Shown here: positions 1-43,520 of the stretch, piece by piece | How the letters are laid out: each line of letters starts with the position of its first letter | Position numbering within the stretch: position 1 is the first letter of the stretch | IMG/VR virus record: IMGVR_UViG_3300025769_000167 | Location: 1 to 52,621 of that record | Length of the DNA: 52,621 bases | DNA from: a virus | Taxonomy: Duplodnaviria; Caudoviricetes | Direction: 5' to 3' (one strand) | Notes under the pieces: generated by a model | What the model saw: only the letters and a program-made list of their open reading frames with translations | Told to the model about the DNA's origin: nothing | The model's database searches: none | Position numbers and translations under genes: made by a program

Positions 1-12
1 TATAAATTCCAT
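1..12 (-). CDS. 5' end (MEFI...) of small membrane protein, truncated by window edge; homolog of 42619..42756
   Basis: Minus strand reads TGTTATAAT-CGTTCCT-ATG GAA TTT ATA, matching TGTTATAAT-CCAAGA-ATG GAT TTT ATA at 42756. Confidence 0.6.
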
Positions 13-19
13 AGGAACG

Positions 20-28
20 ATTATAACA
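20..28 (-). promoter_or_regulatory. Extended -10 promoter (TGTTATAAT), 7 nt before ATG, leaderless type
   Basis: Consensus TGnTATAAT; same motif before the homologous gene in the second copy. Confidence 0.65.
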
Positions 29-34
29 GATTAT

Positions 35-337
35 TTATGCAGGTTTTGGATTGTCTGATTTAACTTTAGCTATGTGGTCTTTCCATGTGGTTGTACCATT
101 GACTGCATCTTTATATTGCATATCAAGTTGGTCGCCAATAGAACCATAAGCTTCTTGTCTTTTTTCTATGTAATCAAACTGTTGTTTATGCCATTTACTA
201 TTACCCAAATCAACCTTAGCTTGTGCATAATCAGCATCAGATAATTCTGACCTAACATTATTAACTTGTTTATATAAAGGTTTAGCAGCTTCTATTTCTG
301 CATTAGCTTCAGTTTGTAATTCTTCTTTTGTTGCCAT
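35..337 (-). CDS. Tail-fibre-associated protein (possible assembly chaperone)
   Basis: 100 aa; R..AYGSIGDQLDMQY...W...I..VK...PKP motif typical of small marine-phage tail-associated proteins; AGGAG SD. Confidence 0.55.
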   Translation of the reverse strand: MATKEELQTEANAEIEAAKPLYKQVNNVRSELSDADYAQAKVDLGNSKWHKQQFDYIEKRQEAYGSIGDQLDMQYKDAVNGTTTWKDHIAKVKSDNPKPA

Positions 338-357
338 ATCTCTCCTATGTTAGCATA

Positions 358-891
358 TTATTCTGATAATAGTTTATACAAAGTAAAAGTTCCACCACTT
401 ATTTGTGTAGCATCTCCACCTATTGCAATGCCATTATGTGCTTCTGCTACTGTATAAACAAATCCTCCAACATTTCCTGCAGGACTTGTATGAGAACTTT
501 CGTATGCAATATCCTGTACAGTAACATAACTAAACTCACTAGAGTTATTAAAATTATACAAATATAAAATGCAACTTGCATCTTCTCCTGTTGCGTTTCC
601 TACTGGTTGAGAACCTTGAAAATACATTTCAGCTCTATTTTCCTGGTTATAATTTTGCGGTGTTGTGTGTGCTCGTATAACATTAGCAGAAAAATCATAG
701 TTACTTGTTGTTTGTTTTGTTGTTGTACCACTAACATCTTTAGTAACTGTATATCTTAGGTAAGCAGTATCTACTGTGTGAGTTATTCCACTAGCTACAA
801 GCATATATACATCATCAGTATTTATACCATCTATTAACACATCAGTAGTGTTAGAAGAAATTGTTGTTGTGTTTACTTGTTCTAATCCCAT
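358..891 (-). CDS. Tail tip/fibre protein, paralog 3
   Basis: 177 aa beta-rich; ends GGTFTLYKL; paralogous to the two upstream ORFs; translationally coupled. Confidence 0.6.
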   Translation of the reverse strand: MGLEQVNTTTISSNTTDVLIDGINTDDVYMLVASGITHTVDTAYLRYTVTKDVSGTTTKQTTSNYDFSANVIRAHTTPQNYNQENRAEMYFQGSQPVGNATGEDASCILYLYNFNNSSEFSYVTVQDIAYESSHTSPAGNVGGFVYTVAEAHNGIAIGGDATQISGGTFTLYKLLSE

Positions 892-1978: not shown

Positions 1979-2934
1979 TATGCAAACGCTAGTTGACTAA
2001 ATAAAAATGGTGTTGTACCTACAAATACAAATGTAAGTATATCTATAGATGCTGCTGCTGTTGATAATGTTAGTCCTGCACCACCGACAGTCTTTGCAGT
2101 AACATCACTACCACCATTAACGCTTACTGCATCTATGTCCATTGTTCTTGAACCTGTTCCATCTTGTGTTACTACTAAAGTAAATGTTGTTACTCCTGTT
2201 GCAGGTACATTTGTAAAATGCAAGTCATCAACTGCAGTAGCAATAGTTAAAGTACCTGTATTACCAAGTGCTAAATCTATTGCAAGGTCTGTTGCTGATG
2301 TAATAACTTGTGATGTTTCATTATAATCTTTTAATACTGCTGCTGATATTGTTTGGTCAGCACCTGTTACAGCACCTGATAAAGTAACAGCACCTAATGT
2401 TTTATTTGTTAGAGTAGCTGTTTCTGCATCAACATAGTTCTTAACTGCTGCTGTTGTAGGTATCTTTGATTCACTATCATTTGATGTAATAGTTTCTGTT
2501 TGTGTAATAATATCTGCAGGATTAATCATAGCGAAGTCTACTGCACCTGCAGCTATTGTTGTCGCTACATCTTGTGTAGCTGAAGCTAATGTACCTGTAA
2601 CATCTCCTGTTAAAGCTACATCATTTATTCTGTCATGTACATCTTCAAAGTGTTGCTTAACTACTGCGAGTCTAACCTTAGTACCTGATGCGTGTGTTGG
2701 ACCACTATTATCACCATCTAAATCTCTGTTAATAGTAGCAGCAGCGTGGTCTGTTCCTGTTGACCAAAAAACTATTTCTCTGCTGTCACTATCAGGGTCT
2801 ATTACAAAATATGCAGGGCTATCTACGCCTGGGTTATCTGCTAAATTCATTGTACCTGTTGGTCCGCCCGCACTTAACTGTGCAGCTAATGTAGTTTCAA
2901 AAGCGTTTACTATATTAGATTCTTGTGCTGTCAT
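1978..2934 (-). CDS. Tail fibre (proximal) protein, copy A
   Basis: 318 aa, Thr/Ala-rich; IPTTAAVKNYVD, TLTNKTL and QDGTGSRT fibre motifs; homolog at 44788..45747. Confidence 0.7.
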   Translation of the reverse strand: MTAQESNIVNAFETTLAAQLSAGGPTGTMNLADNPGVDSPAYFVIDPDSDSREIVFWSTGTDHAAATINRDLDGDNSGPTHASGTKVRLAVVKQHFEDVHDRINDVALTGDVTGTLASATQDVATTIAAGAVDFAMINPADIITQTETITSNDSESKIPTTAAVKNYVDAETATLTNKTLGAVTLSGAVTGADQTISAAVLKDYNETSQVITSATDLAIDLALGNTGTLTIATAVDDLHFTNVPATGVTTFTLVVTQDGTGSRTMDIDAVSVNGGSDVTAKTVGGAGLTLSTAAASIDILTFVFVGTTPFLFSQLAFA

Positions 2935-2958
2935 TCTTCTCCATTATATACTATTTTT

Positions 2959-4881: not shown

Positions 4882-5873
4882 TAACTGTATGCTATCTTAT
4901 TAACAGTTACTGGTTCAGGGTACCTAGCTCTTAAATCCTTTCGTGCTTGTGTTATCAAAGCAGTTTGGTACTGGAGTAAAGAGTTTCTTATTGTTGATGC
5001 AGAGTTAACAGGAAATGTATTTACACTCATTTGGTCTGTTATATAGTCTGCTGTAGCTGTTGGTATATCTCTACCTGATATTAGTTGAGCTGCTACTCCT
5101 GTCATAATAATAGGTTCGTACTCGTCCTCTAAACCTACTGTAGCTAGAGTATCATCTTCTTGTGTAGGAGTTACAAACTTCTTTTTAAATGTAACAAATA
5201 CAGTATGACCTGAAGCAACACTGTAAAACTGAATTGCTTTAACATTATCAGGACCATTGTTACTATAAGTAATTGTTTGAGAGGCACCGTCATCATCTGT
5301 GTATGTAAAAGGATTTGGTAAATCTATTAACTCACATGAAACACCAGAGAATACTGTACCTGTTTCATCTGAGCCTGCAGAAAAGTTTGTGTTTTGTGAT
5401 ATAGATTTAATTGGTGCTATCAAATGATTATCAGTAGAACCACTAAGAGGTACGTAACCTACCTTAGCTACTATTGATTTAGTTTCTACTGCAAATAAAG
5501 TTGGATATAAATTTTTAATCTGGTCACACACTGCATCAAAAACATTCTTACGTGGAAAGACAGGAGAAATTTTAATTACTTTATCTGCAACATGTATAGC
5601 TGCTGTAGTACCTAATACTCCTCTATCAACAGTTACTTTATTGTTTACAGTATCTAAAGATTTACACCTCATTAATTCTTGTTCACACTCAATGATAGTT
5701 CCTGCATCCATTGCATCTTCTTCTTCTTGTGTTAACAAATCTCCATTAAAAATTATTTCAGTTACTGATGCATTAACCTCAGTCTTTAATGTTGTGTAAG
5801 ATTGTAAATCATCCATAGGTTCTAAGTATTCCCTATAGACTCTATTAACTAAGTCACTTATTTTTTGACTCAT
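4881..5873 (-). CDS. Head-tail adaptor-like virion protein, copy A
   Basis: 330 aa; position after capsid genes; RGVLGTTAAIH motif; homolog at 47694..48698. Confidence 0.55.
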   Translation of the reverse strand: MSQKISDLVNRVYREYLEPMDDLQSYTTLKTEVNASVTEIIFNGDLLTQEEEDAMDAGTIIECEQELMRCKSLDTVNNKVTVDRGVLGTTAAIHVADKVIKISPVFPRKNVFDAVCDQIKNLYPTLFAVETKSIVAKVGYVPLSGSTDNHLIAPIKSISQNTNFSAGSDETGTVFSGVSCELIDLPNPFTYTDDDGASQTITYSNNGPDNVKAIQFYSVASGHTVFVTFKKKFVTPTQEDDTLATVGLEDEYEPIIMTGVAAQLISGRDIPTATADYITDQMSVNTFPVNSASTIRNSLLQYQTALITQARKDLRARYPEPVTVNKIAYS

Positions 5874-6058
5874 TACGCTGCTCCTTCTTCAACTAATGAT
5901 GTAGCAAAGATTGCTTGACCAAAGCTACCTAATGCAAACCATCCATCATTGGCTGTATTGTTTGGATTAACAATAGGGAACGAAGGTTCTAATGGTTGGT
6001 CAGGAATACTTTCTATATTAAGATTTCTTCCCTCTTTTAATATTAAGAGCATACTCAT
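5873..6058 (-). CDS. Small virion-module protein, copy A
   Basis: 61 aa; AGGAG SD; MSMLLILKEGR start shared with 48698..48892. Confidence 0.65.
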   Translation of the reverse strand: MSMLLILKEGRNLNIESIPDQPLEPSFPIVNPNNTANDGWFALGSFGQAIFATSLVEEGAA

Positions 6059-6067
6059 AAGTATCTC

Positions 6068-6397
6068 CTAACTGTGTCTAAAGTGTAATACTATTTCTCT
6101 ATCTGCTGCTTCGGTACCATTAGATGTAACTCTAATGTATCCATTGCTAGCAAAAGCCCAGCCACTAGGGTCTACTCTTACTACATCTCCTGCTGAAACA
6201 GTGTAACTTACTTCAGTACCATCTGTTTCTTTTACGTCTAACCATGTAGTATTGTCCATTGAAAAATCAAATGTGATTGCAGAACCTGTCATAGCTGCAG
6301 GAAACTGTACACCACAGAGAAGCATTCCATCTGTTTGTACACCTAAGCTGTCATTGTTATCTGCTGAAACATCTATTAAAGCTAATTTACTTATCAT
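6068..6397 (-). CDS. Virion protein (possible head decoration protein), copy A
   Basis: 109 aa beta-rich, directly after the capsid gene; near-identical homolog at 48901..49233. Confidence 0.6.
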   Translation of the reverse strand: MISKLALIDVSADNNDSLGVQTDGMLLCGVQFPAAMTGSAITFDFSMDNTTWLDVKETDGTEVSYTVSAGDVVRVDPSGWAFASNGYIRVTSNGTEAADREIVLHFRHS

Positions 6398-6415
6398 ATC
6401 TTCCTTACTATAGCA

Positions 6416-6453
6416 GAAGAAAAGAGTGGAGGTGGAGTTCCACTCTAATCTTC
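6416..6453 (-). terminator. Stem-loop after capsid gene (terminator/attenuator)
   Basis: GAAGA-TT-AGAGTGGA..TCCACTCT-TT-TCTTC; compensatory changes in copy B. Confidence 0.7.
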
Positions 6454-6462
6454 AATATTAAA

Positions 6463-7587
6463 TTATGCTACTGACTGAATCTTGCAGTGATATGAAGGAG
6501 GTCCGAACTCGAATCCCATCTCCATATAAATTGCTTTACCAATTCTAGCGTTGGCATCTTGGTCTATGTCACGAACAAACATTGTTCCATATCCTGGGAT
6601 ATTTGTAAACACTGTTTGAATGTAAGCTAAGTCCAAGATAAAAGCAGAACCTGCAGGCATGATATCAGGGTCAATAACCATTAGTCCTATTGAACCAAAT
6701 GGTGTAATGATTGTATCGATATCGACACCAGCAACATTTCTATCTCTAGGAATAATTGTTCCTGCTATGTCAACTGTACCTTTAACAAGTTCATTGTTAA
6801 GGTCTAGTAATTGCTTTGGACTCACGCAGAGTACTGGTTGAGACATTGGTGCATGGTTGTCATACATTCTCTTTAAAGCACCTGAAATGGTTTTAAAGGA
6901 TATGACTTGTGATGCTCCAGTTCCGTCACCATCTACGTCATTGTAGTAACAGTTACCACCTAATGGGTTAACTGCTGCAGCATTGTTGGCGTTCTTGTTT
7001 ATGGTAATCCATACATCAAGACCATACATTTCTCTAGTTCCTGAACCAGGTGATGTGTTTGCACCATCTGAGAAAGAACCATTGAATGCAAACCACTCAA
7101 CTTCTCTTGCTACTTTTTCCATTGCTTTTTCCATTTGGAAAGCAAATTCGTCTGCCACTGGGCTACCACCAAAAAGAGCCAATTTATCACCAGCTGTGTT
7201 GCCACCTGTTCCATTGGAAAAGTTTGCAGCGTTTGCTGATAGGTCGAAAGGATTTTGGTTTTGGGTAGATGCCAAAGCGGTATATGTCATTTGTACACCC
7301 TTGTGGAAAATCTGAGTTACATATGTGTATGCAGCTCTATCTCTTCCAAGATATTCTGTTGGTGCATTACCTTCTTGTGCCTTAGTTGGTTCTGAAGAAA
7401 CGGTTGCATTATCTTCTACTTGGACTTGCCAAAATGTAGAGTTCAATACTTTACCGCCATTCAAACCACCAACTGCACTAAGCAAAGGTGTTCTTTGACC
7501 ACCGACTTTAAACAATTCACCAGTGAAGTTATTAATCTGTTGGGCATAAATAGGTGCTGTTGCACTTAATCCACTTATACTTGCCAT
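6463..7587 (-). CDS. Major capsid protein (SU10/DUF5309-like, HK97 fold), copy A
   Basis: 374 aa; TPLLS, TQIFHKGVQMTYTA and TPFGSI motifs; follows scaffold gene. Confidence 0.8.
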   Translation of the reverse strand: MASISGLSATAPIYAQQINNFTGELFKVGGQRTPLLSAVGGLNGGKVLNSTFWQVQVEDNATVSSEPTKAQEGNAPTEYLGRDRAAYTYVTQIFHKGVQMTYTALASTQNQNPFDLSANAANFSNGTGGNTAGDKLALFGGSPVADEFAFQMEKAMEKVAREVEWFAFNGSFSDGANTSPGSGTREMYGLDVWITINKNANNAAAVNPLGGNCYYNDVDGDGTGASQVISFKTISGALKRMYDNHAPMSQPVLCVSPKQLLDLNNELVKGTVDIAGTIIPRDRNVAGVDIDTIITPFGSIGLMVIDPDIMPAGSAFILDLAYIQTVFTNIPGYGTMFVRDIDQDANARIGKAIYMEMGFEFGPPSYHCKIQSVA

Positions 7588-7612
7588 TGTTATCTTCTCC
7601 TATTATAAATTA

Positions 7613-8080
7613 TTACTTGTCTTCTTTAAGAGTTTCCATCATACGCAACTTAGCGTTAATAGAATCTCCTACTTTTGTGTTGGAATCTGTTACAAATTTC
7701 ATAAACTCATCTCCTATGTTTTGTGGATTTGAATTTACACCAAGTTTATTGAGCTGCTCTACACGTGATTGAGCTTCTACTACATTAGAAGTAAGGTTGT
7801 TGCTAGGCTGTTCAGAACTACTAACTTCTCCAAACTCTTGAGCAACAAAGTCTTTGACTCCATCAACAGTAACATCACCTTCATAGAGTTTTACCACAGC
7901 TTTACCTATGCCCTTCTCTGCATTAAGTCCTAATGAACTTAACGCTGAGTTCATAGCATCGGCTTTAAACTGTCTGTTTTCAGCTTTAAGCTTTTTAAAC
8001 TCTTCTCTAAGTTGTTTGATATTATCTGTTGGTTCGTCCACTATTGTAGTTTCCTCAACTTGTTCTGTATTTTTTTCCAT
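7613..8080 (-). CDS. Capsid scaffolding protein, copy A (start re-assigned to MEKNTE, 155 aa)
   Basis: GGAG SD before ATG at 8080; acidic N-terminus plus coiled coil; directly upstream of MCP; start aligns with copy B. Confidence 0.7.
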   Translation of the reverse strand: MEKNTEQVEETTIVDEPTDNIKQLREEFKKLKAENRQFKADAMNSALSSLGLNAEKGIGKAVVKLYEGDVTVDGVKDFVAQEFGEVSSSEQPSNNLTSNVVEAQSRVEQLNKLGVNSNPQNIGDEFMKFVTDSNTKVGDSINAKLRMMETLKEDK

Positions 8081-8240
8081 ATTTTTTCTCCATCTTTTCT
8101 CTAGCATATTAAATTCCATAACATTAATCGCTAGGTAATTAAAAGGAATTTTCACAAGGGTTTGCGAATAACACATAACGCACCTCGGCAGCGTTATCGA
8201 ATTGTGTGTGACCCTATTCTAAGCGGAACTCACCACGCTA
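8081..8240 (-). ncRNA. Structured cis-regulatory RNA leader of scaffold/capsid operon, copy A
   Basis: Several stems covary with the copy B leader; loop CTAGC can pair with downstream GCTAG (pseudoknot). Confidence 0.6.
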
Positions 8241-8247
8241 CTATATA

Positions 8248-8275
8248 TAGTACTACTCTTTAATACTCTGTCAAG
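8248..8275 (-). promoter_or_regulatory. Sigma70-like promoter TTGACA-16-TACTAT for capsid operon
   Basis: TTGACA lies in the last codons of the upstream gene and is conserved in copy B. Confidence 0.5.
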
Positions 8276-17971: not shown

Positions 17972-20900
17972 TGAATACTCCTCCGAGGTTCTCTTCCTCT
18001 ATTTCTAATCTAAAAATATCATACCACAAATAGTAGAAGTCAGGGTGTTGCATCATAAGTTGTTTAGATAATGTACTTAAATACTGTCTTGCTTCTGCAG
18101 CTTCTGACCTACTTAAACTAGCATTAGCTCCAAACTGTGAACGTATAGATTGAAGTACATTTTGTCTAGCTACTAAGTATTTCATTGCACCTTGAATAGA
18201 AGGTAAGTTCTCTATAGCAACTTGGCTACCATCAGGCATCTTAACTGTTTTACCACTTTCATTTGCTAACAAAGCTTGAAACTGTGCTATCTTAGCATCT
18301 ATATCTAATGATTTAGCTACTGATGATGTAGTTCCATAACCAACGAATTTCTTTTGTAAGTCTAATTTAGTTAAATACAACTGTTCAAATTTCTTATCCA
18401 TTGGTACAGATGCATAGACATTAGTATCTAAAAGTAATCTTCTAGCATTTTCATAAGCTAAGGAACCTTGTGCTTGTCTTATAGAACGTTTAAATTCAAC
18501 GTCAGTTAAATCTACTCTTCTTCCTTCTGTAAAAGCATCAGCCCATTGTTGATAATCAAATTCCCCTAAAGGACTGTCAGGGAATAAGTAATAAGATATG
18601 TCAGGATACTTGTCCATAATCTCTTTGTTTGCTTTATAAAAATATCCACCTTCTGTTGTATAAGCTGTTGCTTGTATCTTTTTAGATTTAGAAACAAGTA
18701 ATGCACTAGGGTCAAATCCAAATGTTCTTATAAACTCAGCAGTAGCTGTAACTCTGTCTCCATCTACACCAGCTAACATTTGATAATATGCGTCAGAAAA
18801 TAAAGTATCTGCAAAAAACTTATGTTGTGGGTCATTTGCTTTAGCTTCCCATGGGTCTAGAAATGCTGCACCATCTGGTCCAACTTCATATTCATAATTA
18901 ACTACAGCAGGTGAAGGAGCAACGAATGCTATAAACGCTTGGTATTTTAACATTGAGTTAGCTAACTTACGTGCTTGTTCTAAACTTTTTTGTTCTGCTT
19001 CTGGAGTACTGTCATCATAAATACCTGAAACAAACATAGCCCTTTGTACTTCTTTAACTCTGTTTGCGTAAGCTCTTTGTAGTTGTGGACTTCCACTACC
19101 ACTTGTAGAACGTAATCTATTTAACCATGTTGGCAAAGCTGCCTCTACATAATAACTTGGGTCTAAAGGTGAGTACTGTGGTCTACCATAAGGAAACAAC
19201 GCTTGGTCAATTCCTTTAGTAGAAGGTAATACTGCTGATGCAGGTAGTGATACTAATGGTCCTAGACCAGGTACTACTGAACCAGCTACCATGTTTAATC
19301 CGCTTGCATAGCCTTCTATTCTAGCATTAACACCAGGAGCATCTATATCTTGAGCACCTGTAATAGGATTAGTAATTGCATTTTCTGGACTAGGATTTCC
19401 AAGTTGTCTATCCAAACTGTTGTTTAACCCGAAACCAGGTGCATTATACATTTCCTCTCCACTTTGTGGGTCAGTAGTAAAGAAGCCTTCATCATCTTCC
19501 TCACCAAATATGCTAGGCTTTCTTGCACCTTCAACACCTCGTTGTAGTTTTCTACCAAATAATGTTTTTTGATTCTTTAATAACCTTGTCCACGTACCAG
19601 CAATTTCTAAATAAACTTCTGCGAAAGGAAAAGCAAGTCTTAACATATCAGAGATAGCATGTCTTTTGTTTAAGTCATATAGTAATGATTGTGTTTCTTT
19701 TAAGGAATAAGCTTTAGCTAATGTATCTATCTGCTCTAAATCATCTATACCTATTTGTTTACTAACGTCAGCAAACCCCATGTTTTCTAAATTTTTAATA
19801 TACTTGTTACCACTACCACCTTTAGGTAAACCTCTCATACTTTTTTTAGCAGCTCTCATAATTTCTCTTCTAGCTACTTCATCCATATTGGCGTATGCAC
19901 TTTCTATAAATCTCCAGTAGTACTGTCTAAATGCAGGCGACCTTGACAACTCATTAGTAGATGCACCCATTAAAGTAGAGAACAATGTTTCTAGAACTCT
20001 GTTGTATTGACTTACTCTGTCTCCATCCATATCATATCTTGAAGCTTTAACTTTAAAAGTATTGTCTATCATGTCGCCTTTAAAGTTTTTGAGCCAAGTA
20101 CTATACGAATTAAATTCACTTCTTGTCATGTTCCTATTAAAGTTTCTTTCTACATAATCATTAGCTTTCTTACTAAAGATAGAAATTTTATTAGAAGCAC
20201 GGTCATCTAAAGCATTTATAGAGATATGTTCTATTAACTCTTTGTCCCCTGCATTTTTAATTACATAGTCTATTGGATTCTTTATTTCCAAAACATTTGG
20301 GTCTGAAGTATTTATAAATCGTTTAGTACCATTAGGTAGTATCTCGTATGCTTCGTATTTACCACCAGTTTTAAGATGTATACGTGCAACTATAGAATCA
20401 ACGTACGAATCTGAATAAGCTTTGTTTTTATTAATTAAGTCTTTTAGATATCTACCTTCCTCAGTAGAGTTACCAACATAAGCTTTACGCCATTTTGACA
20501 AGTCTCCATTCCAGAAAGATTGTTTAACTGCATCTACTGACTCTTTATATTTTATAGGATTTTTAACTGGGTCTATATTTATCTTTGCTAATAAAGGAGC
20601 TATAGGGTCATCAGCTAGCTGTAACAACTCTGAGGTCCAGCTACTGTAAAAACCTGCTGCTTCTTTATTCTTTGTTATAAAACCTCTACTCCTTCTAGGG
20701 TCCATACCTAACATCACACCATTATTTGTCTGTGACATGGCTTCTTGATGAAAGAAACTTTTTTCCATAGTCTCATCAAATATGTCTGTTCCACCTCTAC
20801 CATAATTTTCAGTTAACCAATCTCTACTCTTTTCTCTTTGAGTCATAAACAGTTGTCTATTTCTTTGTGGACTTCTACCAAATATCCAAGCAAAAGCAGA

Positions 20901-23900
20901 AACAGGATGCGTAAACACATTGTCTAGTCCTTCTGCCCACATTCTAATTTGCTCTTCTCCTACGACCCTTGTAACCCAAGCTGGACGCAATAGGATAGAA
21001 GGTTTCCAAAGCATCTGCATATATCCATCACCAATCAAAGAAACCATACCATCTGTAATTTGTGCTATGTCATCACCATCTGTATTAAGTTTTACATTTA
21101 CTCTTGTCTTTCTTACTAACCTAGATATAGATTCAGCCATGTTTCTTTCTGCACCTTTTACTTCTAATTTAGCTAAGTCAGTAATCGGTTTAGATAATAA
21201 TTTATCGTAGGCTTCATCTGTTATGTTTCTACTTCTACCAGTTAATCTAAGGTGTAAATCTCTCATAGGTCTAAATACACGTAAGAACAATCTAGCATCA
21301 GGCATTGGTATATAACCTTCATCCCAATACTCAGATAACAAGTGTGCTGTAGCTCTAGGTCTATTAACAGTTTTAAGACTTCTACCTGAAGTTGTTTTAG
21401 TAAACTCTTCATAGATAGCATTGATTACTTCATCACTGCTTTCATCAGTAGGTACTTTACGTATTTGTTCTAAATTTTCTTCCAATACAGTTTTTAATTT
21501 ACCTAAAGTTACTCTTTGATTTTTACTTTGGTAATATAATAAATCTTCCATTATATTTTTTTGTAATGCTTTTTGTACATTGTCTATATCTGAACTACCT
21601 ACAACGTTTAATTTCTTTACACGATTTCTATAAATAAACTCTTGCATTTCTTTTATTTGTTTCTTTGAAGTAGTTTTAGATAAATCAATAACTATGTGTG
21701 GTTTGTTACCTTGATATGCACCTGTCTTTAAAGTACCACGTACTCCTAAGTCTGCATTGTCTAGATACCCTTTAATTGATTTTAAGTTTTTAGATGTAGT
21801 ACCTGAATAAAATATAATAGTTCCATCAGATTCTTCAATGTTTCTTTTAACAACAGATGCTAAATCTTCTTTAGGGTTTATTGAACCCCAATCTTTATTC
21901 CAATAATCAGGGTCATATACATCTTTGCTTTCTAATATTTCATTAGCTTTCTTAAAAGAAGGTACAACTTCTGATATTTCACCATCTAATTTAACAATAT
22001 TTTGTGCAATTCTTTTTCTATCATTAATAAGATTTTGTTTAACTATGCTAAGTGAAGGACCAGAAGAAACTTTAATTACATCTTGTACTGACTCTTGTTC
22101 AGTTCCTTTTTCTATTGCACCATCTTTGCCTTTGCGGAAATCTCTACTTCTATATCTTGTAGTTCTTTGTATTTCTTTATTAACTTGATTTAATGCATCT
22201 TCTTTTAATTTGTTTAAACCAATAACAATTTCTGCATCTTCCATTTCATCAGTACCATAATTTTTACGGTACCAATCTTTATTTACTTTATTAGGTGCAT
22301 ACTGTGCTTTAACTCTAGCTAATTGTGCGTCAAGGTTCTCTATAGCTTTCTCTATAGTATTCATTACTTTTTTAGAATCTTCTATAGTTTGTATTTTATT
22401 TTGTACTTGTAATCTTGTTTTCTTAGGTAATGAGTTTATTTCTTCTTGACTACCACCTAAAGCTTCGTCTCTAAGATTGCTATATTCTTTCTGTGCGGTT
22501 AATTCATCTACAGCTTTACCATCATCTAAGTTAAGTTCTTTCATTCTTGGTGATTGGTTGTCGTATCTAGCTCCCTTAGTCACTTCAAAATCAAGTAACT
22601 TAAAAGCTCTTTTCTCTGTCTGCACTAGGTTAAACAATTCTTTATTAGTCATACCAGTTTTAGACAAAATCATTTCTAACTGTGTAGCTTTCTGTGGATT
22701 AGTAAATACATCCATAGGTATGCTTGTGACACCTTTCACTCTTAAATATGTATTCTGATATCTATAAACTTTATTTGTAACTTTGCCTTTAAAGAACTTA
22801 AAGCCTTCTGCTGTATCTACAAATGCAGTAACTGTGCCATCTGCTATCTCTTTAGTTTTTTCAAAGAAGTAAGGTCCATATTTTTCTGATAAGTCAAATA
22901 CATTCTCAGGGTCAGATAAAGTACCATCTGGTATAGTGTATCCTTTAGAAACTTTACCACCTGTAGCAACACCTATTTCTTCAGCTATATCTAATGCATT
23001 ACGTTCTGCACCTTCATAAAATCCTGATGATATCTCATCTACTAATATCCTAGTTTCTACAGCAGTAGGGTCGTTTGATATCTCTTTAACTTGTGCGACT
23101 ATATCTTCTATTTCTTTTGTAACGACTGTTGTGTCGCCTTTAAATTTTGCTAATACTTTTTCAATAACTGTAATTGTGTCGTCATCAGTTAATATTTCAG
23201 AAAATTCTTCTTTCATCATCTTAGGTATTTGTTCAAATTTAGAACCAGGGAACCACTCAAGTTCACCTAACTCATTAACAAAGTATCTATGTGTCTCGTC
23301 TACACTTGCCATCCATCGTTTAATACCTTTCATTAATTGTGGAGGTAAATCTATAGCTTCAAACTTTTGTCCAATATGACCAAGTACATCATTCCAAATA
23401 TCTAACACGTCTCCCATATTTTGTAATGATTGTGCTTCATCAGGATTTAATATTTGATTTTCAGCTAGTTCTGCTAATTTCTGTAATGCAGGTTCAGCAA
23501 CATCATCATCTACTTTTGCCCACTTCATCCATTGTTTAAAATCAAAAAAGGATTGGTTTAAATCTTTAACATTTAATTTTGGTACAGGAAATTCTGCAAA
23601 TATTCTACCTAATGCACTATCAGCTTGTGATTTACGAACTGCACCCATAAACCCTACTGCTTCTCCAAATTCCCCACCAACTAATCTACCTGCTGCACTA
23701 GAAACAGAACCTCTTAGTGCTAATGAATTAGGGTCTAGTCTTTTAAATTTAACAGCAGTTTCTATTGCTGGTATTAATAAATCAGTAACTTCTTGTGGTG
23801 AGTTAGCTTTCATTAAATTTTTATGCAAGGCAGCATCACCTTGATTTTTTAATAAACGACCAACAGTGTCAAAGTTATCAGCTAATGCTATTTGTTCTAC

Positions 23901-24911
23901 AATTTTTCTACCACCTTTTGTAGCAGTCAAATATTCTGTAGCAGAAGGAACGTGTATAGTTTTACGTACAGCATTATCTATAATGCCTGCACTTTTTAAA
24001 ACATCAGCTTGTGATAATGACCTAACAGCTTTACCTGCTTTGTTTAGGTAACTACCAACTAATATTGATGGGTCAGCTACTAAAGTAAAAGCACCGTCAA
24101 TAATTCCTGACATAATATCGTAACCTTTTGTTCCTGGTTCAAATACAGTAGCTGTTAATGGTGCTGCTGGTGTTAATTTACTTGTACCAAATCTAGTTTG
24201 TATGGTAAGACTTTCGTCACGTTCTCTTTCGTTATTAGTAATATCTTGACCGTAATAAGTTTGTATTATTTTTTTAGCTTCACCTTGGTCTACACCTCTA
24301 CCTACTAATTCTTTATACACATCTGTATCTTCAGCTAATGTAGAGTTAGGAAAGTATCCTTCACCTAAGTTAACCTTTTTACCTGCTGACAAATTCTGTA
24401 ATGCTGTTCTACCTACAGAAGGTCCTAATATATCTCTTACTTGTCCAAGCTCATTACGTGCATCATTACTAATTAAAAGCTGTAGTGATGCACCTAATAT
24501 TCCTTGACTGTCTCTATACTTCTTTTGGTTTAAATATTTTTGATAAGCTAGTACAGGTTTTTTAACTATTTCATCTTGCACAGAATCAAATGCTGTGAAC
24601 GCAGTTCTTATAGTTCCTCTACCTACAGACTTTACTCTATCCCACCAAGTCTTTTCAGAGTCAAGCCATCGTTCAACTATAGTTCCTATTTCAGGAGATT
24701 GTGCTGTTAAGTTCATTAAAGATGCACCGACTAATACATCTTTTGGTAAATAAAAATGTTCTCTAACTAAACCTTGTAGATTGGTAGCAGTCTGTGGTGC
24801 AGACTCAATCATACCTTGAATTACTTTAGCTTGGTCTATTCTTGAATTTTGTTGTGTTTCTTCTATTTCATCTTGTACGGGAGATTGCCACCACCATCTT
24901 ATTTCAGCCAT
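17964..24911 (-). CDS. Large internal virion/ejection protein with split cpYpsA-like SLOG domain
   Basis: 2315 aa in structural operon; EISSGFYEGAERNALDIAEEIGVATGGKVSKG and RNIEESDGTIIF..KPHIVIDL..KKLNVVG motifs. Confidence 0.65.
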   Translation of the reverse strand: MAEIRWWWQSPVQDEIEETQQNSRIDQAKVIQGMIESAPQTATNLQGLVREHFYLPKDVLVGASLMNLTAQSPEIGTIVERWLDSEKTWWDRVKSVGRGTIRTAFTAFDSVQDEIVKKPVLAYQKYLNQKKYRDSQGILGASLQLLISNDARNELGQVRDILGPSVGRTALQNLSAGKKVNLGEGYFPNSTLAEDTDVYKELVGRGVDQGEAKKIIQTYYGQDITNNERERDESLTIQTRFGTSKLTPAAPLTATVFEPGTKGYDIMSGIIDGAFTLVADPSILVGSYLNKAGKAVRSLSQADVLKSAGIIDNAVRKTIHVPSATEYLTATKGGRKIVEQIALADNFDTVGRLLKNQGDAALHKNLMKANSPQEVTDLLIPAIETAVKFKRLDPNSLALRGSVSSAAGRLVGGEFGEAVGFMGAVRKSQADSALGRIFAEFPVPKLNVKDLNQSFFDFKQWMKWAKVDDDVAEPALQKLAELAENQILNPDEAQSLQNMGDVLDIWNDVLGHIGQKFEAIDLPPQLMKGIKRWMASVDETHRYFVNELGELEWFPGSKFEQIPKMMKEEFSEILTDDDTITVIEKVLAKFKGDTTVVTKEIEDIVAQVKEISNDPTAVETRILVDEISSGFYEGAERNALDIAEEIGVATGGKVSKGYTIPDGTLSDPENVFDLSEKYGPYFFEKTKEIADGTVTAFVDTAEGFKFFKGKVTNKVYRYQNTYLRVKGVTSIPMDVFTNPQKATQLEMILSKTGMTNKELFNLVQTEKRAFKLLDFEVTKGARYDNQSPRMKELNLDDGKAVDELTAQKEYSNLRDEALGGSQEEINSLPKKTRLQVQNKIQTIEDSKKVMNTIEKAIENLDAQLARVKAQYAPNKVNKDWYRKNYGTDEMEDAEIVIGLNKLKEDALNQVNKEIQRTTRYRSRDFRKGKDGAIEKGTEQESVQDVIKVSSGPSLSIVKQNLINDRKRIAQNIVKLDGEISEVVPSFKKANEILESKDVYDPDYWNKDWGSINPKEDLASVVKRNIEESDGTIIFYSGTTSKNLKSIKGYLDNADLGVRGTLKTGAYQGNKPHIVIDLSKTTSKKQIKEMQEFIYRNRVKKLNVVGSSDIDNVQKALQKNIMEDLLYYQSKNQRVTLGKLKTVLEENLEQIRKVPTDESSDEVINAIYEEFTKTTSGRSLKTVNRPRATAHLLSEYWDEGYIPMPDARLFLRVFRPMRDLHLRLTGRSRNITDEAYDKLLSKPITDLAKLEVKGAERNMAESISRLVRKTRVNVKLNTDGDDIAQITDGMVSLIGDGYMQMLWKPSILLRPAWVTRVVGEEQIRMWAEGLDNVFTHPVSAFAWIFGRSPQRNRQLFMTQREKSRDWLTENYGRGGTDIFDETMEKSFFHQEAMSQTNNGVMLGMDPRRSRGFITKNKEAAGFYSSWTSELLQLADDPIAPLLAKINIDPVKNPIKYKESVDAVKQSFWNGDLSKWRKAYVGNSTEEGRYLKDLINKNKAYSDSYVDSIVARIHLKTGGKYEAYEILPNGTKRFINTSDPNVLEIKNPIDYVIKNAGDKELIEHISINALDDRASNKISIFSKKANDYVERNFNRNMTRSEFNSYSTWLKNFKGDMIDNTFKVKASRYDMDGDRVSQYNRVLETLFSTLMGASTNELSRSPAFRQYYWRFIESAYANMDEVARREIMRAAKKSMRGLPKGGSGNKYIKNLENMGFADVSKQIGIDDLEQIDTLAKAYSLKETQSLLYDLNKRHAISDMLRLAFPFAEVYLEIAGTWTRLLKNQKTLFGRKLQRGVEGARKPSIFGEEDDEGFFTTDPQSGEEMYNAPGFGLNNSLDRQLGNPSPENAITNPITGAQDIDAPGVNARIEGYASGLNMVAGSVVPGLGPLVSLPASAVLPSTKGIDQALFPYGRPQYSPLDPSYYVEAALPTWLNRLRSTSGSGSPQLQRAYANRVKEVQRAMFVSGIYDDSTPEAEQKSLEQARKLANSMLKYQAFIAFVAPSPAVVNYEYEVGPDGAAFLDPWEAKANDPQHKFFADTLFSDAYYQMLAGVDGDRVTATAEFIRTFGFDPSALLVSKSKKIQATAYTTEGGYFYKANKEIMDKYPDISYYLFPDSPLGEFDYQQWADAFTEGRRVDLTDVEFKRSIRQAQGSLAYENARRLLLDTNVYASVPMDKKFEQLYLTKLDLQKKFVGYGTTSSVAKSLDIDAKIAQFQALLANESGKTVKMPDGSQVAIENLPSIQGAMKYLVARQNVLQSIRSQFGANASLSRSEAAEARQYLSTLSKQLMMQHPDFYYLWYDIFRLEIEEENLGGVFSG

Positions 24912-25242: not shown

Positions 25243-25445
25243 AATATATTCCCATGTGTATCAGGATGAAATGTAATTTCTATTCTCCCTAAACCAGGAA
25301 TGTAAGTAACTGCTAATGTAGTATATTCTGCATCAACATATTCAGGTACGTTATACTCTTCTGTTACTTCTTCTATTGGTTCTGAAAAATTCCTAGCAAT
25401 TATTTGTGCAAACTCTTCGTTATCACTATTGAACAGGGGGGGCAT
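25239..25445 (-). CDS. Hypothetical protein
   Basis: 68 aa; GGAGG SD within the end of the portal gene. Confidence 0.55.
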   Translation of the reverse strand: MPPLFNSDNEEFAQIIARNFSEPIEEVTEEYNVPEYVDAEYTTLAVTYIPGLGRIEITFHPDTHGNIF

Positions 25446-27168
25446 TACCGCCTCCTAACATAGCTTGTAAGTTTGGTGGACCACCTTGTTGTTGTCCAGC
25501 CATTGCTTGTTGCAACATAGCTTGTTCCTGTGGACTTGGCTCTTCACCTTGTGCTGTAAAGTATTTTTCTAATATAGAACCTTTTTGTTTAGGGTTATTA
25601 TATATTTCTACAACAGCAGCCATAGCAGTTTTGTCACCTTGCTGAGAGGCTTGTATTAACATTTGGTCCATAATTTCTTCTGACTTCTGTTTAGTAATTC
25701 TTTCATTGATGTGTGTTATATTTTCTAAACCATCCATTTCTTGTTGCATAGTTTCTTTATCTATAACTCCAGCTTGCATTAACTGCAGTCCTGTAATAAT
25801 TTTATTTGGTGCATCAAAAGAAGCCATAGCACCATACTTTCTTCTAGTAACATAGTTTTTATCTATATCAATAGATGGTGTATAGTTTTCTGAAAAAGCT
25901 GAACCTTTATAAGTTCCTGTCAGAGGTTTTCTTTTGTTACCAAAAAGCACTTCATCTAACTCTAATCTTTTAGAATCTATTTCTTGTAAAGCATATTCGA
26001 GTATTGTGTGATACTCAGTAACCATAGCTCCTACACCAGATTCCAGTTCTTCCAGACCTCTACCAGTTACAAATGAATTAGGTGATATAGCATCGTCTTG
26101 AACTGGATATCCAGCAACAACTCTTAATTGTCTTTCTAATCTACCTACAGCTTCAAATAACTGATACGGTAAGTTAGTAACAGGTTTTACTATTTGTGAG
26201 CCAGGTGATAAATAGTTTATAGCATTTCTACCTTTTCTATATTGTCCTGATTCTATTTCTCCAACTATATTTGTTTCTGTAAATACTGCATCCTCCATAG
26301 CTATAACAGATAAAATGTTTATCTTTGCCATAGAAGCCATGAGTCCAACTACTTGGTCAAACTGACCTTGTATTTTGTCAAAGCTAAATCTTTTAGCTAC
26401 AACAAAAGACGGACCTGATTTAAGAGGATTGGGAACAAAGTCTACTATTTTTTTTGAAGCAACATGTACAACATATGTACCTTCTAGGTTCATATATTCT
26501 AAAATGACATCTCCGTTTTCATCTGAGTTTTCCCAACTACCATCGTCAGAAGTCCTTAGATTGTAACCATCATATGATTGTTCATCAGTATCCTTAGTCT
26601 CATAATATGCTCTAAGCTCTGGGTACATATCCATAAGTTTTCTTATAGGAATTTTTTGAATAATTGCTAACTCATCAGGTTGTTGTGTGTTTCCAAAATA
26701 ACCAGGAAAACAATCGTAAGGGTTACGTAATTCTGCACATGGATACATATGTCCATTCATATCTAATTTTGTTGTAATAACCCATACAGCAAATCCGTAA
26801 CCAGGAAGCCATCTTGAAACTTGAGGTAATTGTAATTCTAATTTTTGCATACTGTCGTATGAAGATAATATTCTCTCTACTTTTTCTTTCTTGCCTTTAT
26901 TCCTAACACTATCTCTAGCATTAGTAATATGCACATCTAACGTTGGGACTTTACCAATTTTTTGAGCTAGTCTATCTAAAGCAGATAGCATAAGGTTAGG
27001 TGCTGGTATTGTATGTGAATCACTAGAATCAAGTCCAGGACCTAATAACTGTTTAATACCATCTTCACCACCATTTAATATAGCTCTAAATCTTGCTCTA
27101 TCTGTTAATGCATCATCATGCATTCGTTTTAAATAGGAAGCTCTTTCGATTATTGCGTCAGGTTTCAT
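25426..27168 (-). CDS. Portal protein
   Basis: 580 aa directly after TerL; helical with Gln-rich C-terminal tail typical of podovirus portals. Confidence 0.8.
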   Translation of the reverse strand: MKPDAIIERASYLKRMHDDALTDRARFRAILNGGEDGIKQLLGPGLDSSDSHTIPAPNLMLSALDRLAQKIGKVPTLDVHITNARDSVRNKGKKEKVERILSSYDSMQKLELQLPQVSRWLPGYGFAVWVITTKLDMNGHMYPCAELRNPYDCFPGYFGNTQQPDELAIIQKIPIRKLMDMYPELRAYYETKDTDEQSYDGYNLRTSDDGSWENSDENGDVILEYMNLEGTYVVHVASKKIVDFVPNPLKSGPSFVVAKRFSFDKIQGQFDQVVGLMASMAKINILSVIAMEDAVFTETNIVGEIESGQYRKGRNAINYLSPGSQIVKPVTNLPYQLFEAVGRLERQLRVVAGYPVQDDAISPNSFVTGRGLEELESGVGAMVTEYHTILEYALQEIDSKRLELDEVLFGNKRKPLTGTYKGSAFSENYTPSIDIDKNYVTRRKYGAMASFDAPNKIITGLQLMQAGVIDKETMQQEMDGLENITHINERITKQKSEEIMDQMLIQASQQGDKTAMAAVVEIYNNPKQKGSILEKYFTAQGEEPSPQEQAMLQQAMAGQQQGGPPNLQAMLGGGNAPPVQ

Positions 27169-29085
27169 TTAACTCCAAGGTGTCTCGTTCCATTGTACAC
27201 TATTATAGCCATCAAAACTAGGAGTGTATTCTATTCCTATATCAGAATATACTAATTTTGTTAATGCTCTAATAACTTTCATAGGAAACCAACTTGCCAT
27301 AACAACGTCTGATTTGTAGCCTTTACCACCCTTACCCTTAGATGCAAAGTAAACTAATTGTTTTGTATACGTTATAGATTTACTTTGTGCATCTGCGTCA
27401 TAAAAAGGTAGTACTATCATCTGCTCATTAAACATAGGTGCTAAAGCAGTTACTCCAAATTTTTCATCCCATTTGTTTTTATGTGTCTCGTGTCCCTCTA
27501 GTTTAATACCTTGGACATTACAGTATTCTTTTATTCTCTGGTCTTGTCTTATAGCTTTTTGAAAACCATTCTCTTCTATAACCCAGTGGTAACAACCATA
27601 TTTGTCGTGCCACATTTTGATTAGGGCAAAAGCTTCATCTAAACCACCACCCTGATGATTTTCTAAGTCAACTAATGTTAATTTAATTTGGGAAGCATTT
27701 GTCTCTACCGCCCATAAGAAACCTGCTTGATATCCTGTAGCGGCAGGGTCAAGTCCTGCTACTAGATATGCACCTTTAGGAATATGACCTAAACCAATAT
27801 TAGGGTCATAACATTTCTCTATTTGTTCAGGATTAAATAATCTAAGACTGTCACTGTAAGCTTTATTAAGATAAACCATTTCAAAATTCTTTAAACCACC
27901 TGTAGTCATAGCATCACGTTTTCTGTTTATTAACCACTTAAAAGTTCTCTTACCTGACCACAACATACAATCAACATGGTCTTCTTCTTCAAACTCAGGT
28001 ATAACACAAAGGCTATCGTGTGCTTCTTCTACTATAGTTTCCCATGCTTCTGACTCTAAAATTGCAGAGTACAAATCTTCAGGATGCTGACGTGAACCAA
28101 TAAGTACCATAGCTGTGTGTTCTTCTTTTCTTGAACCTAATGTAGTTGTCCACCAGTTTTTTGTATTTTCTCTTGATGCTGGTTGCATAGTAGAGCTGTG
28201 GTCTTCAATGTCATCAGCAATAATTAAGTCACAGTCACGTGAAAGTATCTTACCACCACGACCTATACCTATCATTGTTGGTGATTTAATACCAGCTACT
28301 GTTCGTGTTGATACAGTAAATCCACTACGTGACCACATTTTACCTGCTCTTGTTGCTGGTTTAAATGTTCCTCCTGGACCACAAAAATCTTCTTTAAGTT
28401 TTTCATTTTGCTCTAGTGTATCCATAACTGACATAACAGAGTTCATAGCAATATCTTCGTTACCACCGACCCACATAATACGTATGTTAGGGTTTCTCAT
28501 AATAAGCCAGATAACAAAATGTATTAACAATTCAGTTTTACCATGACGTGGTGGTGACAGTATCATTTGCTGTCCACCAGTTAGTAAAGCTTTGTTAATA
28601 GATTTTATCCAGTTAACGTGAAAGTCTGCAGTTTCAAAAGGTATACCCATTTCAGTTAAAAAGTATCTGTCTCTAAATTCTGCAAAATCTTTTAAAGATT
28701 GTTCTGCATCTTCTGATATCTCCCAGCTTTCAGCTTGCCTATCTTTAGCGTAATCTTCTTGGAATGCACCTAGTAGCCTACTGATATGTGAAGACGTACA
28801 TTTTAATTCGTCTGCTATTTCTTGTCTAGTTAATCTGCCTTGTATTAAATCTAAAGCATATCCTTCATTTACAAACTTATCATATAAAGCACCACGTCTA
28901 ACTTGTGTAACTGTGCCTTTGTTAGATTCTTTTATTTCAGGTTCGTACTCTCTACCTTGTTCTTTATAACGTTGTTTTCTTTTTTGCTCACGCCACTTAC
29001 AAGTATCAGAACAATACTTACGTGCTTTTTGAGGTAACGTATTTTCACATTCTGGTGAAATACATATTATATTTTTAGTTACCAT
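27169..29085 (-). CDS. terL: Terminase large subunit with N-terminal Zn-finger/HTH extension
   Basis: Walker A PPRHGKTE, Walker B LIIADDIED, IGSRQHPEDLY coupling motif, RNase H GLDPA..EENGFQ..DVVMA. Confidence 0.9.
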   Translation of the reverse strand: MVTKNIICISPECENTLPQKARKYCSDTCKWREQKRKQRYKEQGREYEPEIKESNKGTVTQVRRGALYDKFVNEGYALDLIQGRLTRQEIADELKCTSSHISRLLGAFQEDYAKDRQAESWEISEDAEQSLKDFAEFRDRYFLTEMGIPFETADFHVNWIKSINKALLTGGQQMILSPPRHGKTELLIHFVIWLIMRNPNIRIMWVGGNEDIAMNSVMSVMDTLEQNEKLKEDFCGPGGTFKPATRAGKMWSRSGFTVSTRTVAGIKSPTMIGIGRGGKILSRDCDLIIADDIEDHSSTMQPASRENTKNWWTTTLGSRKEEHTAMVLIGSRQHPEDLYSAILESEAWETIVEEAHDSLCVIPEFEEEDHVDCMLWSGKRTFKWLINRKRDAMTTGGLKNFEMVYLNKAYSDSLRLFNPEQIEKCYDPNIGLGHIPKGAYLVAGLDPAATGYQAGFLWAVETNASQIKLTLVDLENHQGGGLDEAFALIKMWHDKYGCYHWVIEENGFQKAIRQDQRIKEYCNVQGIKLEGHETHKNKWDEKFGVTALAPMFNEQMIVLPFYDADAQSKSITYTKQLVYFASKGKGGKGYKSDVVMASWFPMKVIRALTKLVYSDIGIEYTPSFDGYNSVQWNETPWS

Positions 29086-40557: not shown

Positions 40558-40746
40558 CTACTCTCCTTTCCTAAATCCTATTGTTAATAGCCATACAGCT
40601 AATGTAATTAGGGTAGCAAGTCCTGTCACTTGTTGTGCAGAACCAGTCAATGTTAATGTTGCAATAACTAAACCGACAAGAGTCCAACTAAGGTTAAGTG
40701 TTTCCTTAATCGCATCTATTATCCAGTTGCCTAGTTTTTTAAACAT
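40558..40746 (-). CDS. Small two-TM membrane protein (lysis-block accessory)
   Basis: 62 aa with two hydrophobic helices; AGGAGAGG SD. Confidence 0.65.
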   Translation of the reverse strand: MFKKLGNWIIDAIKETLNLSWTLVGLVIATLTLTGSAQQVTGLATLITLAVWLLTIGFRKGE

Positions 40747-43498: not shown

Positions 43499-43520
43499 GT
43501 TTCCACCTTTTTTAATTAAA

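Follow-up and report, generated by a model that had tools for sequence, protein, structure and literature searches.

Our analysis of a viral genome record indicates that a giant protein encoded within it very probably carries one cpYpsA-type SLOG domain, a Rossmannoid domain whose chain is interrupted by a large nested insert. The DNA, here called the window, is a stretch of 52,621 nucleotides comprising positions 1 to 52,621 of the IMG/VR virus record IMGVR_UViG_3300025769_000167 (Duplodnaviria; Caudoviricetes), and the giant open reading frame (ORF) lies at window positions 17964-24911 on the minus strand, where it runs for 2315 codons and encodes a protein of 2315 amino acids (aa). As modelled, further domains are nested within this one at a loop that permits insertion; the interruption reflects neither a pair of half-domains nor the insertion of a mobile element. 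To the explanation as a whole, in which the split SLOG domain is delivered with the virion and binds a ligand, we give a probability of about 0.6, a figure that is a compromise between its parts. The regions of the protein and the segments of its central cassette are listed below, from the N- to the C-terminus:

Giant aa 1-600, minus strand: N-terminal scaffold, conserved.
Giant aa ~620-1125, minus strand: central cassette, variable.
Giant aa ~1160-2315, minus strand: C-terminal scaffold, conserved.
22908..23051, minus strand: predicted cpYpsA SLOG N piece, aa 621-668, with strand 1, the loop SGFYEGAER (GxE kept), helix 1 and strand 2.
22542..22907, minus strand: insert module 1, an ASCH/PUA-like beta-barrel, aa ~669-790, assigned at the level of fold.
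21882..22541, minus strand: insert module 2, a predicted helical hairpin or arm, aa ~791-1010, with a low-confidence basic tip at aa ~910-949.
21537..21881, minus strand: predicted cpYpsA SLOG C piece, aa 1011-1125, with helix 2, strand 3 (SDGTIIF), strand 4 (KPHIVID), strand 5 (LNVVGSSD) and their helices.

That a cpYpsA-type SLOG domain is split here by a large insertion had been suggested by a reading of the letters made without database searches (the sequence-only reading), which placed two colinear halves about 1 kb apart; the positions, the order and the separation of these halves all stood up to the searches. The whole giant matches the Pfam family cpYpsA (PF12694) with 43.7 bits (E 2.9e-11; cut-off 26.2) in two stretches, separated by an insert of ~345 aa. 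Scanned alone, the N piece (aa 600-690) scores 20.0 bits (E 6.3e-4), with giant aa 627-668 on profile positions 1-42, and the C piece (aa 1000-1140) scores 34.6 bits (E 1.9e-8), with giant aa 1014-1106 on positions 50-125. The 145-position profile is covered colinearly, 1-42 and then 50-125, with the elements in their permuted order. A six-frame search of the record put PF12694 matches at 22830-23033 and 21594-21872 on the minus strand, and such a search found cpYpsA in none of 14 control genomes. On these scores, two colinear cpYpsA matches are far beyond chance.

The standalone relatives of the domain show what the insert interrupts. A phmmer search of 1.84 billion representative proteins with giant aa 560-1160 as query returned 18 matches at E<=1e-3, half of which (9 of 18) are only 154-268 aa long. 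Searched again locally, all nine of these short proteins matched both pieces of the giant in order, with the matched parts adjacent in the target: their first ~55-80 residues correspond to giant aa ~621-698, and the adjoining residues to giant aa ~1014-1124. The seven of the nine that were scanned against PF12694 are all contiguous single domains, scoring 88-161 bits. Because standalone cpYpsA proteins are contiguous, the insert must be the derived state. The loop after strand 1 reads SGFYEG in the window, where six of the seven unsplit relatives printed have SGGQTG or SGGQNG and the seventh SGGQAG. After the last strand, the nine unsplit relatives printed have AG (CG in one), followed by [HNSP]R in seven, by HTN in one and by PKR in one; the window tail motif is NVVGSSD, with VGSSD in place of these. 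The window domain has neither the SGGQTG glycine loop nor the tail NVAG-x-R-(E/A)-S, a consensus drawn from the relatives compared here and not from curated family criteria. The sequence-only reading had noted that key residues are altered, and the SGFYEG and VGSSD changes are indeed real, but the GxD/E signature is retained in the window as G634-A-E636; it is present in all 21 clade representatives printed. GxD/E is described as a substrate-binding signature in the accessible text of the YpsA literature (PMC6459960). Since this signature is kept, the altered residues argue less strongly for a non-catalytic binder or decoy than had been stated, and that suggestion, judged from sequence, is plausible.

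We modelled giant aa 600-1140 with AlphaFold2 from a 19-row alignment made up of the giant's relatives and the nine unsplit proteins. The sequence-only reading had named such a model as a way of seeing whether the halves fold together, and they are predicted to form one fold; the outcome that it had given as refuting its view, halves that fail to assemble into a Rossmannoid SLOG fold, was thus not what the model showed. The mean predicted local distance difference test score (pLDDT) of the model was 69.3 and its predicted template modelling score (pTM) 0.46, with pLDDT of 78-84 in the N piece and 82-91 in the C piece; the low-confidence stretches are the linkers and the tip of the insert. When the best 1000 chains from Foldseek were aligned with VIA-align, the first was the cpYpsA structure 3imk (Z 17.3, root-mean-square deviation (rmsd) 3.2, 155 of 158 residues aligned, 23% identity), in an alignment spanning model positions 18..527 and hence running across the insert; the rows after it were generic coiled coils, unrelated, at Z<=9.8. 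Foldseek itself, run with this multi-domain model, gave nothing at E<=1e-3 and placed 3imk at E 2.1e-2. DSSP assigns strands at model positions 27-30 and 50-54 in the N piece and at 431-436, 473-477 and 501-506 in the C piece, and these two plus three strands fit the five-stranded sheet that the accessible text of PMC9503650 gives for this class of Rossmannoid domains. The chain would thus leave the SLOG fold after strand 2 and the following loop, build the barrel and the helical hairpin, and re-enter the fold with helix 2 and strands 3-5, so that both pieces contribute to the five-stranded sheet.

We also folded the two pieces as separate chains without alignments, together with three controls. 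The median score was 0.42, the best of the controls reached 0.02, and the result was graded as weak support: the mark set for this test is reached by 51 of 78 solved complexes and by 2 of 108 mismatched pairs, while with a score of 0.60 or less it is reached by only 5 of the 78 solved complexes and by all 4 passing mismatches (of 180). The runs share at least 60% of their contacts, with a partner pLDDT of at least 49. Because the fold has already been solved (3imk), this pass may reflect memory or likeness only.

The insert resolves, in the models, into a barrel and long helices. The top Foldseek rows for the model of aa 600-1140 are ASCH proteins, namely YqfB (9kyh_B, E 5.5e-3), EF3133 and the Zymomonas and Lactobacillus ASCH domains, and VIA-align places YqfB on model positions 71-179 with Z 8.7. 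The barrel alone, modelled with AlphaFold2 as aa 661-794 from a 12-row alignment drawn from the wider family, reached a pLDDT of 75.4 and a pTM of 0.66. Its best Foldseek match was again YqfB (9kyf_A, E 3.8e-3), and VIA-align, applied to 48,161 chains without relying on Foldseek, gave only ASCH-type chains at Z>=5, six in number:

9kyf_A, YqfB: Z 7.8, rmsd 3.4, 92 of 102 aligned.
3s9x, Lactobacillus crispatus ASCH domain: Z 6.9.
5guq, ZmASCH: Z 6.8.
1t62, EF3133: Z 6.6.
6kir, EOLA1/CXorf40A: Z 6.4.
2z0t, PH0355: Z 6.1.

Rows seven and eight are 1xne (Z 4.9) and 2kku (Z 4.1), which we take to be ASCH-type as well, and the scores then fall to 3.6. We therefore describe insert module 1 as ASCH/PUA-like at the level of predicted fold, with thin support in sequence and modest scores. 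In the motif alignment, the barrel carries G-K-R-T-S-T-T-R in most clades and G-T-V-T-A-F-V-D in the window; the former sits where the YqfB segment with Lys21, Thr24 and Arg26 sits. Alanine mutants of these three YqfB residues are inactive, according to the accessible text of PMC6972931. As the window motif has none of the YqfB-type Lys, Thr and Arg, YqfB-type activity is not expected in this copy. The hairpin has DSSP helices at model positions 200-309 and 355-395, with pLDDT below 50 at 311-350, and it matches generic coiled coils only (Z 7-10).

Two other accounts of the insert were considered. The sequence-only reading had seen no intein termini, and in agreement with this no Hint or intein-type family scored at E<=10 in aa 691-999; the insert consists of a conserved barrel and helices, and we reject an intein. 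Among Pfam families in general, none came near its cut-off in this 309-residue stretch, the best being AP1AR with 16.9 bits against 27, and a protein atlas search with the insert gave no usable match. Separately, we observed that aa 684-699 (window 22815-22862, minus strand; '...KEIADGTVTAF') resemble the SLOG 'SDGT' strand at aa 1028-1034. A hidden Markov model (HMM) of the unsplit proteins and two unsplit relatives align there, within the window clade only in P0002 and P0003 (relatives of the giant are given here by their P numbers). A second copy of SLOG helix 2 and strand 3 is not the reading we favour: other clades have G-K-R-T-S-T-T-R at this place, and both models put the stretch in the barrel, as its first helix and strand. 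The likeness is probably due to chance.

The split is shared across a family of giant proteins, which we define as the window giant and 78 relatives (79 in all) recovered with its C-terminal 1156 residues. These relatives are 1317-2958 aa long, come from marine and other metagenomes and have no informative names. An HMM built from the nine unsplit proteins found both cpYpsA pieces in 52 of the 79 giants, the C piece only in two (both fragments) and nothing in the remaining 25. The position of the break is common to all 52, in one region or loop: the N piece ends at HMM positions 34-86 and the C piece starts at 41-66. The gap between the pieces varies from 40 to 408 aa (median 245) as follows:

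P0083 and P0085: 40 aa, with the canonical SGGQTGAD loop kept.
P0034-39: 153-173 aa.
P0040-63 and allies: 204-245 aa.
P0025-27: 291-296 aa.
Window clade: 312-353 aa.
P0009 and P0055 clades: 372-408 aa.

Across the clades the loop after strand 1 forms a series, from SGGQTGAD (P0083/85) through SGGQEG[IV]D, SGGNTGVD or TGGGRGSE, and GGFYDGVE, to SG[FY]Y.GAE (window, P0009 and P0025). The ASCH-like module was detected in 21 of the 79 giants: in the window, P0025 and P0009 clades it is part of the gap, in P0055/64/67 it precedes the SLOG domain, and in P0083/85 it follows ~600 aa downstream of that domain; it is absent from P0034/38, in which the gap consists of the helical part only. In the P0009 clade, a further domain, DUF7831 (PF25176), is nested in a second loop of the SLOG C piece (aa 1115-1218 of the 2495-aa P0009, E 1.2e-36), and in P0055 the same domain lies far downstream of the SLOG domain, at aa 1841-1949; a literature search for DUF7831/PF25176 found no paper. 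The modules, found at different positions in different clades, are mobile. The modular make-up of the insert, the family-wide split (at least 52 giants), the DUF7831 domain in another loop of a relative and the SDGT-like stretch at aa 684-699 all go beyond the sequence-only reading.

The cassette is the least conserved part of the giant within the window clade. Against four relatives, all with an open frame of 2316-2319 codons, the giant is 76-98% identical overall, and only 37-41% identical over aa 651-750; its overall identity to the three relatives of 2316-2319 aa is 76-77%. We estimated the ratio of non-synonymous to synonymous substitution rates (dN/dS) by the Nei-Gojobori method for segments of the giant against six close IMG/VR loci, which are nearly identical to one another and not independent, so that counts are small. 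The values were 0.03-0.13 for the scaffolds, 0.04-0.26 for the SLOG C piece, 0.06-0.12 for the ASCH-like barrel and 0.22-0.36 for the helical hairpin, the least constrained among the segments with enough changes to judge; the SLOG N piece, with 0-5 non-synonymous and 3 synonymous changes, gave 0-0.52. Relative to these six loci, the SLOG C piece and the barrel are under purifying selection; the cassette is not decaying, and dN/dS shows no more than that. In a language-model protein atlas, the viral clusters nearest to the C-terminal scaffold (window 17967-21434, minus strand; aa 1160-2315) carry LPD38/LPD39, domains named from polyvalent proteins. In a Kyte-Doolittle scan of the giant, one stretch alone stood out as hydrophobic, and weakly so (aa 1877-1895, mean 1.43); this is not enough to make a case for membrane insertion, which we rejected.

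The gene for the giant lies among the genes for virion morphogenesis, of which three serve as landmarks:

27169..29085, minus strand: large terminase subunit (phrog_38, E 2.2e-63).
25426..27168, minus strand: 580-aa protein in the portal position, named by position only.
6463..7587, minus strand: major head protein (phrog_1328, E 7.5e-28).

The 580-aa protein has no match in PHROG, Pfam or NCBIfam. Downstream of the giant lie a lysozyme-like 318-aa protein, which at 25.7 bits falls just under the PF18896 cut-off of 27, and a 1515-aa protein, followed by the major head protein. We examined 10 of 37 related loci fetched (L003-L039), eight of them distant and two close. The terminase and portal-position genes stand directly upstream of the giant gene in all ten, with the portal-position protein (79-97% identity) directly after the terminase gene in each. 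The eight distant loci were fetched with P0043, a relative of 2234 aa. In every one of them, genes for a 472-aa protein, a 370-aa protein and the capsid follow the giant gene (one capsid gene is cut by the end of its locus), and the terminase, portal-position and capsid proteins are 71-91% identical to those of the window; the giant's relatives in the P0043 and P0055 clades, which are clade relatives and not the giant genes of these loci themselves, are 41-44% identical to the window giant over aa 1160-2315. The two close loci end inside the 1515-aa gene. Thus the giant gene has a fixed place in the morphogenesis block, and yet it is where change concentrates.

Several further observations concern the record itself. 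The 1515-aa and lysozyme-like 318-aa genes (window 10790-16374, minus strand) occur only in the two close loci, and in the eight distant ones only ~2 kb separate the giant gene from the 472-aa gene, which marks a second variable region of the morphogenesis block. The ends of the record (1-10800 and 42800-52621) repeat each other in order at 73-91% identity, with a start-to-start distance of ~42.8 kb and parallel ORFs of 640, 330, 109 and 374 aa against 640, 334, 110 and 372 aa. It looks as though the assembly ran once round a circularly permuted genome of ~43 kb and then continued into that of a related variant. The record is probably a chimera of two strains, with a true genome length of ~42.8 kb. 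Six copies of a TC-rich repeat of ~41 nucleotides (65-100% alike) lie at window 40995-41698, within overlapping ORFs at 40739-42451 (minus strand) and 41049-41828 (plus strand); read on the minus strand, they would give a protein region of acidic repeats. The nearest cultured terminase, at 24.5% identity, belongs to Streptomyces phages, and the cultured-phage terminase matches are mostly to actinophages (59 Mycobacterium, 58 Microbacterium and 31 Streptomyces records of 309). One member of the giant family, P0038, is filed at NCBI under a marine Actinobacteria metagenome-assembled genome. With a G+C content of 33-39%, a low-GC marine actinobacterial host would be our guess.

We propose that the scaffold regions get the giant packaged in the virion and released from it on infection, in line with the model put forward for phage 'polyvalent' proteins, and that the cassette would be an accessory, host-directed module. 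Delivery with the virion, argued from gene order and from the model of these polyvalent proteins, seems to us an evenly balanced proposition. Rather than acting as an enzyme, the cassette might bind, without catalysis, either nucleic acid or a ligand that derives from a nucleotide, an immune signal made from ADP-ribose being one example. The window SLOG keeps the GxD/E ligand signature; the cassette is read as non-catalytic because two aromatic residues replace the glycine-rich loop and because the barrel has none of the YqfB-type Lys, Thr and Arg. That the cassette binds a ligand at all is a tentative suggestion, more doubtful than the delivery.

A number of results weigh against this explanation. 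At the level of the whole protein, the giant has no match in PHROG, NCBIfam or the PDB sequences, and protein and DNA searches of the INPHARED phages found nothing resembling it. The LPD38/LPD39 lead from the protein atlas scored 0.89, with 150 of 256 features shared, and so did not reach the tool's mark of 0.9; the Pfam models of LPD38 and LPD39 gave nothing in the window at E<=10, a blank that is uninformative in that LPD38 was silent in the control genomes too. SLOG, YpsA and PUA go unmentioned in the main text of PMC5512222, on polyvalent proteins. We infer the virion location of the giant from gene order alone, and few copies per virion would make a poor stoichiometric sponge. As to the SLOG domain, the AlphaFold2 alignment included the nine unsplit cpYpsA rows, which steer the model towards a joined fold, and the 25 family members lacking any cpYpsA also tell against the proposal. 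We know of no cpYpsA protein with a demonstrated ligand. As to the barrel, its Z scores top out at 7.8, below 8 and in a range common for unmatched models, and its Foldseek E values are 3.8e-3 or worse. The window barrel matched no Pfam family at E<=10, so that its assignment to ASCH (PF04266) is on fold only; Pfam ASCH was reached by just 2 of 14 module sequences (best E 0.025), the window copy not among them. Profile searches of the PDB sequences with the module gave nothing significant (1t62 at E 0.44 with profile A4, PsbU at E 0.56 with A3). The P0009 module, too, found nothing in Pfam.

The alternative that survives best gives the cassette a purely architectural role: the SLOG domain would serve for oligomerisation or docking of a virion protein, with the hairpin as a spacer arm and no small ligand, and the motifs would be degenerate since only the folds matter. 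The loss of the canonical glycine loop and of the YqfB-type Lys, Thr and Arg in the window clade speaks for it, as do the low conservation of the cassette, the spacer-like variation of the gap by clade (40-408 aa) and the hairpin's dN/dS of 0.22-0.36, the highest of the well-sampled values. We nevertheless regard it as rather unlikely. The SG[FY]Y.GAE loop and the GxD/E signature are kept across clades with only 32% identity in the region, the scaffold works without a SLOG domain in 25 of the 79 members, and modules enter and leave the cassette in the manner of accessory domains.

An active enzyme is a less likely alternative, and one we consider improbable. In this case the SLOG domain would act immediately upon ejection, on a signal that derives from ADP-ribose or is a modified nucleotide, and would cleave an N-glycosidic bond in it. 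Such cleavage has been proposed for viral YpsA-like SLOG domains in general, going by the accessible text of PMC9503650; the window keeps GxE, and distant clades, which keep a canonical SGGQTGAD loop and the G-K-R-T-S-T-T-R barrel motif, may be active. In the window clade, however, the loop after strand 1 carries two aromatic residues, and the Arg of the tail motif, found at the second position after the Gly in seven of the nine unsplit relatives and one position further on in an eighth, is a Ser in the window. To our knowledge, catalytic activity has been established for no cpYpsA protein. Lastly, it is very improbable that a mobile element or intein disrupted the domain and left the pieces as decaying remnants, or that they resemble SLOG by chance: the key motifs are altered and the window N piece alone lies below the Pfam cut-off (20.0 against 26.2 bits), but the frame is open for 2315 codons and for 2316-2319 in four relatives, dN/dS is well below 1 in the C piece and barrel, 52 proteins, with identities as low as about 31%, share the break point, the insert has no Hint or intein family and the whole-protein Pfam match has an E value of 2.9e-11.

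Returning to the split SLOG domain as a delivered ligand binder, its more general form is speculative, and we think it unlikely to hold in full. The loop after strand 2 would be a hot spot for nested insertion, repeatedly mounting reader modules (a helical arm bearing an ASCH-type barrel that binds bases, with DUF7831 in a second loop) beside the nucleotide pocket, and so giving composite, virion-delivered sensors or sponges of host immune nucleotides. If this were true, the giants of an abundant marine phage lineage would form a branch of injected counter-defence 'cassette' proteins not described before, with a rate of evolution several times that of the neighbouring capsid genes. SLOG domains are central to nucleotide-based bacterial immunity, as in the Thoeris sensor, and for phage SLOG copies the countering of immune signals has been proposed, not shown. 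For uncultured marine phages (a lineage of ~43 kb), the cassette offers a concrete candidate anti-defence module that would be delivered, and aa ~617-1126 define a 510-residue construct for expression and ligand tests. The giant family also offers a natural series on how a Rossmannoid fold accommodates nested domains.

Judged by sequence and predicted fold, the window SLOG is a member of the cpYpsA family. With PF12694 and 3imk, the latter from Syntrophus aciditrophicus and deposited as a 'putative molybdenum carrier protein', it shares the sequence match, the order of elements, the fold and GxD/E. The known cpYpsA proteins and the standalone members found here (154-268 aa) are contiguous, whereas the window domain is interrupted by ~345 aa inside a 2315-aa protein; it also differs from its cpYpsA relatives in having SGFYEG for SGGQTG and in lacking the Arg of the tail motif. 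A text search of the literature for 'cpYpsA' returned only an unrelated mention. The first classification of SLOG clades is reportedly a 2015 paper in Nucleic Acids Research (NAR).

The ASCH proteins YqfB (9kyf), ZmASCH (5guq), EF3133 (1t62) and EOLA1/CXorf40A (6kir) are among the only structural matches of the window barrel at Z>=5, and the barrel differs from them in having no family match at the level of sequence and none of the residues whose loss inactivates YqfB. Phage-type polyvalent proteins resemble the giant in being very large and multidomain, in having terminase and portal morphogenesis genes nearby and in shuffling accessory domains on a conserved frame; they are proposed to be packaged and injected, according to the accessible text of PMC5512222 (J Bacteriol 2017). 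In contrast, Pfam scans of the window giant detected none of the polyvalent hallmarks (MuF, ART, MPTase, PBECR, methylase-helicase and others), and the domains recognised in the giant family are cpYpsA, the ASCH-like module and, in relatives, DUF7831, with no domain of the polyvalent inventory among them. Most viral SLOG domains fall in the YpsA-like clade, and the role proposed for them is the sensing or degradation of signals of the cyclic ADP-ribose type, as set out in the accessible text of PMC9503650 (Viruses 2022), where they are typically standalone, with sporadic fusions to helix-turn-helix, HNH, exonuclease, helicase and guanylate kinase domains. The window SLOG is likewise phage-encoded and of the YpsA-like clade, and in this it resembles these viral domains and the ligand-sensing SLOG of Thoeris ThsA, a role against ADP-ribose signals being a general proposal of the published text; it differs from the domains of that survey in being nested with other domains in a giant virion-module protein, an arrangement not described there, supplements aside. 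What the main texts compared here do not describe (supplementary tables may list it) is the architecture: an ASCH-like barrel and a helical arm nested together within a SLOG domain of a giant protein of the virion block, at a gap that varies across the whole family.

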